Assembly (NCBI RefSeq): GCF_029227855.1
Contig: NZ_CP074356.1
Direction: 5' to 3' (one strand)
DNA: 64,000 bases
Source: Escherichia coli
GTDB taxonomy: Bacteria; Pseudomonadota; Gammaproteobacteria; Enterobacterales; Enterobacteriaceae
Under the pieces are notes generated by a model that worked only from the letters and a program-made list of their open reading frames with translations, ran no database searches and was not told the DNA's origin. Positions 2,137-45,289 of this stretch are shown here, piece by piece; position 1 is the stretch's first letter, and every line of letters starts with the position of its first letter. The position numbers and the translations under genes are program-made.

Positions 2137-4362
2137 ATGCGGTGGATCCTGTTCATCCTCTTCTGCCTGCTGGGCGCACCTGCCCACGCGGTATCCATAC
2201 CCGGCGTTACAACCACAACGACAACGGACTCAACGACTGAACCGGCCCCGGAACCGGATATCGAACAAAAAAAAGCGGCCTATGGCGCACTGGCGGATGT
2301 GCTGGATAATGACACCTCGCGTAAAGAGTTGATCGACCAGTTGCGCACCGTCGCCGCTACGCCCCCTGCGGAACCGGTACCAAAGATCGTGCCGCCGACG
2401 CTGGTTGAAGAGCAAACCGTGCTGCAAAAGGTCACCGAAGTCAGCCGCCATTATGGTGAAGCCCTTTCCGCCCGCTTCGGGCAACTTTATCGCAATATCA
2501 CCGGCTCCCCGCATAAGCCGTTTAATCCACAAACCTTCAGCAATGCGCTGACCCATTTTTCAATGTTAGCGGTATTAGTGTTTGGTTTTTACTGGCTGAT
2601 TCGCCTGTGCGCACTTCCGCTGTATCGCAAAATGGGCCAGTGGGCGCGGCAAAAAAATCGTGAGCGCAGTAACTGGCTGCAGCTTCCGGCGATGATTATC
2701 GGGGCGTTTATTATCGACCTGCTGTTACTGGCACTGACATTATTTGTCGGTCAGGTTTTAAGCGACAACCTGAATGCGGGCAGTCGCACCATCGCTTTCC
2801 AACAAAGTTTGTTTCTCAACGCCTTTGCCCTGATTGAATTTTTCAAAGCTGTACTACGCCTGATTTTTTGCCCAAACGTGGCGGAACTGCGCCCGTTCAC
2901 GATTCATGACGAGACCGCCCGTTACTGGAGCCGTCGCCTGAGCTGGTTAAGCAGCCTGATTGGCTATGGCCTGATTGTCGCCGTGCCGATTATCTCTAAT
3001 CAGGTGAATGTACAGATAGGTGCGCTGGCGAACGTCATCATTATGCTGTGCATGACCGTCTGGGCGTTGTACCTGATCTTTCGTAATAAAAAAGAGATTA
3101 CCCAGCATTTGCTCAACTTCGCGGAGCATTCGCTGGCCTTTTTCAGCCTGTTTATCCGCGCCTTTGCGCTGGTGTGGCACTGGCTGGCAAGTGCCTATTT
3201 TATCGTGCTGTTTTTCTTTTCGTTGTTCGATCCGGGCAACAGCCTGAAATTTATGATGGGTGCAACGGTGCGCAGCCTGGCGATTATTGGTATCGCAGCA
3301 TTTGTTTCCGGTATGTTTTCCCGCTGGCTGGCGAAAACCATCACCCTCTCGCCACATACTCAGCGTAACTATCCGGAGCTGCAAAAACGGTTGAATGGCT
3401 GGCTGTCGGCGGCGCTGAAAACGGCGCGTATTCTGACAGTCTGCGTGGCGGTAATGCTGCTGTTGAGCGCATGGGGATTGTTCGATTTCTGGAACTGGCT
3501 GCAAAACGGTGCGGGGCAGAAAACCGTAGATATCCTGATCCGTATCGCACTCATTCTTTTCTTCTCGGCGGTTGGCTGGACAGTGCTCGCCAGTTTGATC
3601 GAAAACCGGCTGGCTTCGGATATTCATGGCCGCCCGCTACCCAGCGCCCGTACGCGTACCCTGCTGACGCTGTTTCGTAACGCGCTGGCGGTGATTATCA
3701 GTACCATCACCATCATGATTGTGTTGTCGGAAATCGGCGTTAATATCGCGCCATTGCTGGCAGGTGCCGGGGCATTAGGTCTGGCTATCTCTTTTGGTTC
3801 GCAAACGCTGGTGAAAGATATTATCACCGGGGTATTTATTCAGTTTGAAAACGGCATGAACACTGGAGATTTGGTTACTATCGGGCCGTTGACCGGTACT
3901 GTGGAACGGATGTCGATTCGCTCCGTGGGCGTGCGTCAGGATACCGGGGCGTATCACATCATTCCGTGGTCTTCGATAACTACCTTTGCTAACTTCGTCC
4001 GCGGCATTGGTTCGGTGGTGGCAAATTACGATGTTGATCGCCATGAAGATGCTGATAAAGCCAATCAGGCACTGAAAGATGCGGTAGCTGAATTGATGGA
4101 AAACGAAGAAATTCGCGGGTTGATTATCGGTGAACCGAACTTTGCCGGGATTGTCGGCTTAAGCAATACCGCATTTACACTGCGTGTTTCGTTCACCACG
4201 CTGCCACTCAAACAGTGGACGGTCCGCTTTGCCCTCGACAGCCAGGTGAAAAAACATTTCGACCTGGCGGGTGTTCGCGCGCCTGTACAGACTTATCAGG
4301 TGCTGCCTGCTCGGGGCGCGGCCCCGGCTGAACCGCTGCCGCCGGGGGAGCCAACGCTTTAA
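2137..4362 (+). CDS. ybiO: MscS-family mechanosensitive channel
   Basis: 750-aa ORF; internal ATG at 2137 preceded by GGAGGA gives the 741-aa YbiO ([18 protein letters not shown] signal-like N-terminus); conserved MscS core in the C-terminal part. Confidence 0.9.
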
Positions 4363-5285
4363 CGCTGGCGATTGACAAAACGGCGGCGCTGCTCGTCGTT
4401 CATAAAGGTCCAGGCAATAAAGCGGCTCTGCTTTTGCCCCTGGGCCATCTCTTTTTTGACCACTTTCACCGCGCCCACGTCCGTCAGAGCACGATACAAC
4501 GGCGGCAAGTTTTCGCCACGAGATACCAGCGAGGTAAACCACATCACCTGCTTCGCGAAGCCTTTGCTCTCTTCAATCATCTTTTTGATAAAAGCGACTT
4601 CACCGCCTTCACACCACAACTCCTGTTGCTGACCACCAAAGTTCAGTGCATCGTCTTTGTTCAGCCCCAGGTTACGGCGTTTACGTTCACTACCTGCCCG
4701 TGCCGCAGCGGCGGAATCGTGGAATGGCGGGTTACACAAGGTCGCGTCGTATTGCTCGTTTTTATGGATGATGCCGTTAAAAATCGCCCCACTCTCTTTT
4801 TGCCGACGCAGACGAATGGCGCGGTTAAGCCCCGGATTAGCACTGATGATCGCCTGCGCACTGCTTAACGCCTGGCTGCTGGTTTCACTACCAGTAAAAC
4901 GCCAGCCATATTCATGTACACCAATCAGCGGGTAAATACAGTTCGCACCAACGCCGATATCCAGAATGCTGGCATTAGCTGGAATTGTTCCGCTTGCTTC
5001 TGCCAGTAAATCGGCAAGGTGATGAATATAATCCGCCCGGCCCGGTACTGGCGGGCAGAGAAAACCGTCGGGGATATCCCAGTTCGCTACGGCGTAAAAA
5101 TGGGCCAGCAACGCCTTATTGAGCGCCTTCACCGCCAGCGGATTGGCAAAGTCTACGCTTTGCTCCCCGGCGGGTGTAAGCGTGAGGAATTGCCTGAGTT
5201 CAGGATTGACCTGACAAAGCGTGGCGAGATCGTAGCGGCTGTGATGACGGTTGCGCGGATGCAACCCCGGTTTCTGGGCGGACAT
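4359..5285 (-). CDS. rlmF: 23S rRNA m6A1618 methyltransferase
   Basis: 308-aa ORF matching RlmF (YbiN) in length and sequence; converges on ybiO with a 4-nt overlap. Confidence 0.9.
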
Positions 5286-15506: not shown

Positions 15507-16871
15507 TTACTGCGCAGCGGCAGGTTTACGCGGACGGCGGCGGCGTTGTTGTTCGCCTGCCGGTTTGGCATCGCCAAGACGACGAGATGGTTTTTCTGCA
15601 GGCTTCGCGCTCGCAGATTTTGCGCCACCTTCAGCGCGGCGTGGTTGCTGTTGACCGCGACCACCACCTTGCCCACGACCGCCGCCGCCACGTTGCTGGC
15701 GACCGTTCTGGATTGGTTCGGCTTTGATTGACGGGTCCGGCTCATAGCCCGGAATCGCAATGCGCGGGATCTCTTTTTTCAGCAGTTTTTCGATATCACG
15801 CAGCAGTTTGTGTTCATCAACACACACCAGCGACAACGCTTCACCGGTAGCAGCCGCACGACCGGTACGCCCGATACGGTGAACATAATCTTCCGGTACG
15901 TTTGGCAGTTCATAGTTGACCACGTGCGGCAACTCTTCGATATCCAGACCGCGCGCAGCGATGTCAGTTGCCACTAGTACACGAATATCGCCCGATTTAA
16001 AATCAGCCAGCGCACGGGTACGCGCACCTTGCGATTTATTGCCGTGGATCGCCGCACTGCGGATGCCATCTTTATTGAGCTGTTCAGCCAGATGGTTAGC
16101 GCCATGTTTGGTACGGGTAAACACCAGCACCTGCTGCCAGTTCCCTTTCCCAATCATGTGCGACAACAATTCGCGTTTGCGTTTCTTATCAACAAAGTGA
16201 ACATGCTGGGTCACCTGATCAGACGCGGTATTGCGGCGTGCCACTTCGATTTCCAGCGGGTTGTGCAACAGTTTTTCCGCCAGAGCTTTAATATCGTCAG
16301 AGAAGGTCGCGGAGAACAACAGGTTCTGGCGCTTCGCAGGTAGTTTTGTTAACACGCGACGGATATCGTGGATAAAGCCCATGTCGAGCATGCGGTCAGC
16401 TTCATCGAGGACGAGGATTTCAACCTGATCCAGCTTCACCGCATTCTGATGTTCCAGGTCCAGCAGACGTCCCGGCGTTGCAACCAGCACATCAACGCCG
16501 CCGCGCAACTTCATCATCTGCGGGTTAATGCTGACACCGCCAAACACCACCAGCGAACGAATGTTCAGGTATTTGCTGTAATCACGGACGTTTTCGCCAA
16601 TCTGCGCCGCCAGTTCACGGGTCGGGGTAAGAATGAGCGCACGTACCGGACGACGCCCTTTGGCGTGCGGCTGGCGAGTGATCAGGTGTTGCAACAGCGG
16701 CAGCGTAAAGCCCGCTGTTTTGCCGGTGCCAGTCTGGGCGCTAGCCATCAGGTCGCGGCCTTCCAGCACCGCAGGGATCGCCTGCTGCTGAATAGGGGTG
16801 GGTTCACGGTAACCCTGCTCGGCAACGGCGCGCAGGATATCAGGGCTTAAACCCAAAGAATCGAAAGACAT
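15507..16871 (-). CDS. rhlE: ATP-dependent RNA helicase (DEAD-box)
   Basis: 454-aa ORF with DEAD motif (VLDEADRM), Q-motif, and a Gly/Arg-rich basic C-terminal tail; matches RhlE. Confidence 0.95.
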
Positions 16872-17064
16872 AACTACTCCGAACCGCCCCGACCGTTACC
16901 GGTGTAGTTTTCAGGGAGATACTGAAAAGGAAAATGACAAAAACCACAATGTCATGAGGGAGCGGAGTGTAGCAGTTTTTGTGACGCAGCGCATAAATTA
17001 TCCCTGTGACTGGCGTTGCTAAAATTCTTAGCCATACTGGACAACTCCCATATGGAGTCATAAT

Positions 17065-17086
17065 CTTAATCAATCATTTGATTAAG
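17065..17086. promoter_or_regulatory. TetR-type operator-like palindrome (candidate CecR site) in the rhlE-cecR divergent region
   Basis: cttaatcaa-tcat-ttgattaag is a perfect 9-4-9 inverted repeat just upstream of the cecR start. Confidence 0.4.
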
Positions 17087-17099
17087 AATGGACTGTGCG

Positions 17100-20490
<3,391 letters not shown>

Positions 20491-45214: not shown

Positions 45215-45289
45215 TTAAAATCCTGTTCTTTCTGTATGACTCATACAGAAGTCCTTTATTGATTGTCCTTATCCTGACAACGAATTTTT

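Follow-up and report, generated by a model that had tools for sequence, protein, structure and literature searches.

Genomic organization of the rhlE/cecR locus

The window, by which is meant the whole 64-kb stretch of DNA that was analysed, contains an E. coli chromosomal locus in which rhlE and the cecR-ybhGFSR genes are arranged back to back on either side of an intergenic spacer (rhlE <- spacer -> cecR-ybhGFSR, Table 1). The region was 100% identical to several complete E. coli genomes annotated with rhlE, cecR and a hlyD-like ybhG, and the window was collinear with MG1655, in which cecR is b0796 (829972–830643, minus strand) and rhlE is b0797 (830872–832236). The start of ybhG and the stop of cecR overlap by 1 nt. 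The cecR product contains the Pfam domains PF00440 and PF09209 (CecR_C) and matched the crystal structure of CecR (PDB 9I1X) with an E value of 3e-148; Salmonella YbiH (1T33) was also matched. A complex of CecR with DNA was not found among the solved structures.

The cecR start used here is that of the MG1655 annotation and of the crystallography construct, and is the start contained in the printed cloning primer of PMC12998191. Starting from a second ATG in the same frame, at 17088, CecR would be 227 aa long and would begin within or directly after the right arm of the palindrome described below.

Table 1. Coordinates of genes and sequence features at the rhlE/cecR locus, numbered from the first letter of the window.
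Feature	Position	Strand	Description
rhlE, DEAD-box RNA helicase	15507..16871	-	Divergent neighbour of cecR
rhlE/cecR spacer	16872-17099		228 bp
Predicted cecR -35 hexamer TGGACA	17038..17043	+	Conserved block between variable flanks
Predicted cecR -10 hexamer TAATCT (TAnnnT)	17061..17066	+	Overlaps left edge of the operator
Perfect 10-4-10 inverted repeat TCTTAATCAA-TCAT-TTGATTAAGA	17064..17087		Very probable CecR operator, full Escherichia form
Conserved 20-bp core TTAATCAA-N4-TTGATTAA	17066..17085		Apparently ancestral form TTAATCAATCGATTGATTAA
cecR (ybiH), TetR-family regulator, 223 aa	17100..17771	+	First gene of cecR-ybhGFSR operon
ybhG, HlyD-like membrane-fusion protein	17771..18769	+	First target gene 3' of cecR

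An inverted repeat upstream of cecR

A sequence-only reading of the locus had described a 9-4-9 palindrome, cttaatcaa-tcat-ttgattaag, at 17065–17086 in the divergent region just upstream of cecR. The repeat is exact at these positions, but the arms are longer than described and the perfect repeat is 10-4-10. Its position was confirmed, with 12 nt separating the end of the repeat from the cecR ATG at 17100, and the equivalent MG1655 coordinates are 830656–830679. The repeat has the two-fold symmetry of TetR-family operators and falls within their length of about 15–30 bp.

In first-order Markov simulations of the window, perfect repeats with 10-nt arms and a loop of 0–10 nt occurred at a mean of 1.0 per 64 kb, which scales to about 0.002–0.004 such repeats in a spacer of this size. 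The window itself contained 11 entries of this kind at seven places, those other than the cecR palindrome being mostly G+C-rich stem-loops. A search of the 64-kb window for a second copy of the operator, allowing up to 3 mismatches, gave nothing beyond a chance-level match at 4573. An intrinsic terminator was considered and rejected, as the stem is AT-rich and is not followed by a T-run, and the palindrome is not known to resemble a LexA-type or other box. Elsewhere in the window, a perfect palindrome with 10-nt arms and a single central base (10-1-10), TTCTGTATGA-C-TCATACAGAA, occupies 45230–45250 in the intergenic region between ybhH and ybhI; this has the look of a LexA box, but its CTG-N11-CAG spacing is one base too long.

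Conservation of the palindrome

Conservation between species was examined using one genome per species, which gave 80 Enterobacteriaceae loci with CecR proteins 73–100% identical; counts out of 81 include the window. The 20-bp core was located 11–14 nt upstream of the cecR start in all 80 species. Both arms were exact in 79 of the 81 sequences, and each of the remaining two carried a single substitution. The central four bases were TCGA in 70 sequences, TCAT in seven and TCGT in four, the last group being Kluyvera. The 20-bp palindrome was gapless in 68 of 81. The uninterrupted palindrome with the TCGA centre is the commonest and apparently the ancestral form of the operator. Of the seven sequences with TCAT, one was the window, five came from Escherichia loci and the last from a further Enterobacteriaceae isolate; this centre is essentially an Escherichia variant and represents a lineage-specific break of symmetry. 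The two outermost positions varied, at times symmetrically (TC..GA, AG..CT, TA..TA) and often not (TC..TT).

When the 300 nt preceding cecR were profiled for conservation, the core was at or near 100% while the bases of the -35/-10 spacer varied freely, and the same contrast held within Escherichia. The palindrome was unchanged across Escherichia, MG1655 included, and of 5423 complete E. coli genomes, 5402 (99.6%) carried the 40-mer at 17056–17095 without a mismatch.

The neighbouring genes were compared in the same set of loci. ybhG was found downstream of cecR in all 80. Four loci had no rhlE within 3 kb upstream of cecR, and these belonged to K. pneumoniae, K. spallanzanii, K. grimontii and a Pluralibacter. 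The core was retained next to cecR in each of these four (L044, L060, L072 and L076). In the K. pneumoniae locus, L044, the upstream neighbour is a LysR-type gene on the same strand, and the spacer of about 73 nt between it and cecR (2931–3003) reads ggTGGACAaaccgccagtcggcgccTAAAGTTAATCAATCGATTGATTAAtt. The whole TGGACA-17 nt-TAAAGT-operator module is kept there, and little else fits in the spacer. The palindrome is co-inherited with the adjacent TetR-fold regulator gene, as is typical of TetR-family operators, and on the sequence comparison it is an element of cecR rather than of rhlE.

More distant homologues containing the CecR_C domain were drawn from a representative library. The exact 20-bp core was found 16 nt before the ATG of a homologue with 59% identity, within a 16+16 palindrome containing one mismatch. 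At 49% identity the sequence TTAATCA-TATGAT-TGATTAA occupied the equivalent position, and the gene was divergent from a DEAD-box helicase gene. At 46% identity (L088/L089, 2480–2496) the core was not recognisable and the site contained only an imperfect TTTAATTC-T-GAATCAAA, which bounds the depth of conservation at roughly 49%; a DEAD-box helicase gene and ybhG/ABC genes still adjoin the gene for this homologue. The helix-turn-helix (ATTRxIA...GQNIAAI) was invariant across all of the CecR homologues compared, including the one with 46% identity.

Overlap with the predicted cecR promoter

Two further blocks upstream of cecR were conserved. The hexamer TGGACA was present in 73 of 81 sequences and was followed by a TAnnnT hexamer in which the T, the A and the final T were retained in all 81, the distance between the two being 17 nt in 80 sequences and 16 nt in one. 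On the basis of its conservation, this TGGACA-17 nt-TAnnnT module is predicted to be the cecR promoter. A consensus scan of 16800–17200 for promoters and terminators reported no sigma-70 promoter, because the -10 sequence TAATCT agrees with the consensus at 3 of 6 positions and the threshold was 4 of 6; the scan gave one terminator-like site, located inside cecR.

The palindrome overlaps the conserved module. Given the -10 assignment, transcription of cecR is predicted to start near 17072–17074, which would place the operator at about -10 to +15, where steric repressors classically bind.

The leader region of rhlE

The approximately 130 nt upstream of the rhlE ATG (16872–17005, minus strand) were 90–100% conserved across 76 Enterobacteriaceae species, exceeding the conservation of the first rhlE codons. 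An Rfam search of 16700–17200 (E <= 1), which includes this leader, gave no match. RNAalifold analysis of 40 sequences predicted a hairpin, GACA-N10-UGUC, around 16931–16952, together with a longer stem directly upstream of the rhlE Shine-Dalgarno sequence. Double changes from A-U to G-C were observed in two pairs, all of them in the Klebsiella/Raoultella group. By analogy with the autoregulation of deaD or with cold control, the region may be a structured regulatory leader; no description of an E. coli rhlE leader was found in the literature searched.

Published information on CecR binding

According to PMC12998191 (FEBS J 2025), which summarises the work of Yamanaka 2016 (PMID 27112147; Microbiology 162:1253), a sequence recognised by CecR lies within the cecR-ybhGFSR/rhlE spacer, with cecR-ybhGFSR under negative and rhlE under positive control by CecR. 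The single site was obtained by genomic SELEX, gel shift and DNase footprinting (Yamanaka 2016, as described in PMC12998191 and PMC5934670), and CecR has been classed as a single-target regulator by genomic SELEX (PMC5934670, PMC5210515). ChIP-exo agrees with this and gave a palindromic AT-rich CecR motif, described as inverted repeats 7 nt apart (PMC6237786). That spacing differs from the 4-nt centre of the palindrome, or from the 6 nt obtained when the arms are taken as TTAATCA. A cecR knock-out overexpresses a five-gene CecR module, and CecR was called a repressor (PMC6892915). Cephalosporins and chloramphenicol are reported to bind CecR (PMC12998191), and mutations in the cecR/rhlE intergenic region have been seen in evolution experiments (preprint 10.1101/392977).

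At the level of location, the palindrome and the published site, as described there, agree in lying within the same cecR/rhlE spacer. No article quoting the arm sequences was found in the literature searched. The abstract of Yamanaka 2016 reportedly describes a complete palindromic sequence of AATTAGTT-AACTAATT, which is exactly the TTAATCAA...TTGATTAA arms read 3' to 5'; the literal 5' to 3' string is absent from the window.

Identity of the site

The sequence-only reading had proposed the palindrome as a candidate CecR operator, and this proposal is supported by three independent lines: the placing of a CecR site in the spacer in the literature, the phylogenetic footprint in 80 of 80 loci, and the overlap with the predicted -10 sequence and start. 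With high confidence, the palindrome can be assigned as the operator of the TetR-family repressor CecR (YbiH). It is almost certainly the CecR site published in 2016, and is in that case already known rather than a discovery. The present analysis contributes comparative detail. In Escherichia the repeat extends to 10-4-10, and the apparently ancestral form is a 20-bp palindrome with no gap and a TCGA centre. The operator overlaps a conserved -35/-10 module, and the site persists in loci that lack rhlE and down to about 49% protein identity.

A palindrome in this position could also serve a regulator other than CecR, for example one dedicated to rhlE, with the CecR site lying elsewhere in the 228-bp spacer. 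In favour of this, the rhlE-proximal part of the spacer (16872–17005) shows high conservation as well and has inverted repeats of its own. The palindrome, however, co-occurs with cecR and is kept in the four loci without an upstream rhlE, including that of K. pneumoniae, whereas the remaining conserved sequences go with rhlE and show paired changes that resemble RNA structure. A single CecR target in the spacer is given in PMC12998191, and the ChIP-exo motif is likewise palindromic and AT-rich (PMC6237786). Binding by another regulator is on these grounds very improbable. The palindrome reportedly given by Yamanaka 2016 also fits these arms.

A second alternative is that the palindrome works as RNA, with an AU-rich hairpin of 10 bp in the 5' leader of cecR acting on mRNA stability or translation. 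A transcript of the region would form a stable 10-bp stem with a 4-nt loop (17060–17110 folds at -11.7 kcal/mol, z = -3.0), and symmetric changes at the outer positions are also expected of a stem. Against this, the eight core positions of each arm are invariant and never covary, and strict invariance of this kind points to sequence-specific recognition. In 70 of 81 sequences the would-be loop is the self-complementary TCGA; self-complementarity is not required of a hairpin loop, and a gapless palindrome centred on TCGA is characteristic of recognition by a symmetric protein dimer. Because the conserved -10 sequence overlaps the left arm, the predicted transcript would start inside that arm and the stem could not form. 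The ribosome-binding region is outside the stem, and the Rfam search described above gave no match here either. Taken together, the gapless palindrome, the invariant arms and the -10 sequence overlapping the left arm favour binding of a protein to DNA over an RNA hairpin, the probability of which is slight.

That the palindrome is a functionless product of chance in AT-rich DNA has a negligible probability, since although short palindromes are enriched in AT-rich intergenic DNA and the window contains several other repeats with 10-nt arms, only about 0.002 would be expected in the spacer, the sequence is invariant in 80 species while the adjacent promoter-spacer bases vary freely, and the surrounding 40-mer is nearly constant in E. 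coli; the conservation data effectively refute this explanation.

Proposed mechanism of regulation

In the mechanism proposed for CecR as repressor at this operator, we infer the exact hexamers, the start site, the steric mode of repression, the stoichiometry and the route of rhlE activation. A CecR homodimer, or possibly two dimers, would bind the conserved core through the invariant helix-turn-helix. The operator would cover the -10 hexamer and the predicted start of the cecR-ybhGFSR promoter, and CecR bound at this position would exclude or trap RNA polymerase, thereby repressing both cecR and the efflux genes for YbhG/YbhFSR. The steric detail of this repression is likely, at a lower confidence than the identity of the operator. 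On binding an effector, CecR would leave the operator and repression of the operon would be lifted; cephalosporins and chloramphenicol have been put forward in the literature as effectors.

Both autoregulation and control of ybhGFSR had been suggested from the sequence. The two are supported, but not as separate functions: since cecR is part of a single operon with ybhGFSR, a repressor of this operon is by the same act autoregulatory. The same site is reported to affect rhlE as well.

Transcription of rhlE is reported to be raised from this single site, and the effect could be direct or could come about because silencing of the back-to-back cecR promoter frees the promoter of rhlE. A putative rhlE promoter consists of a -10-like sequence, GATAAT, at 17002–16997 (minus strand) with a poor -35 sequence near 17025–17020. 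CecR may raise rhlE expression by removing a competing RNA polymerase, in which case it would need no activation surface, and the change from TCGA to TCAT in Escherichia might tune the affinity of the operator and the basal expression of the efflux pump. The joint reading, in which promoter competition explains the 'dual' action of CecR and the TCAT centre tunes operator and efflux, is speculative and rather unlikely to hold as a whole.

The operator would be the switch for YbhG/YbhFSR, an ABC-type efflux system tied to sensitivity to cefoperazone, chloramphenicol and tetracycline. Knowledge of the exact operator and its promoter overlap should help in reading the intergenic mutations from evolution experiments, and the exact operator should be useful for the design of CecR-DNA co-crystals and of biosensors.

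Comparison with known systems

The closest comparison is with the published CecR site of E. coli K-12, with which the organism, the spacer and the regulator are all shared, and nothing of substance differs. Among other systems, TetR-tetO, AcrR, RutR, BetI and QacR resemble CecR in having a homodimeric TetR-fold regulator adjoining an efflux system. To our knowledge the sequence of the CecR operator is unlike the boxes of other E. coli TetR-family regulators. The TetR-family pairs have a palindromic operator on a regulated or autoregulated promoter and are released by ligand, and the same is predicted for CecR; the ligand-release model is restated as general for TetR-family repressors in PMC12998191. 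CecR differs from the other pairs in several respects. It is co-transcribed with its targets, whereas in the other pairs the regulator is divergent. It belongs to TetR subfamily D and has the CecR_C (PF09209) ligand domain, unlike the other TetR-family regulators compared, and it also stands apart from them in being reported to affect the divergent gene positively.
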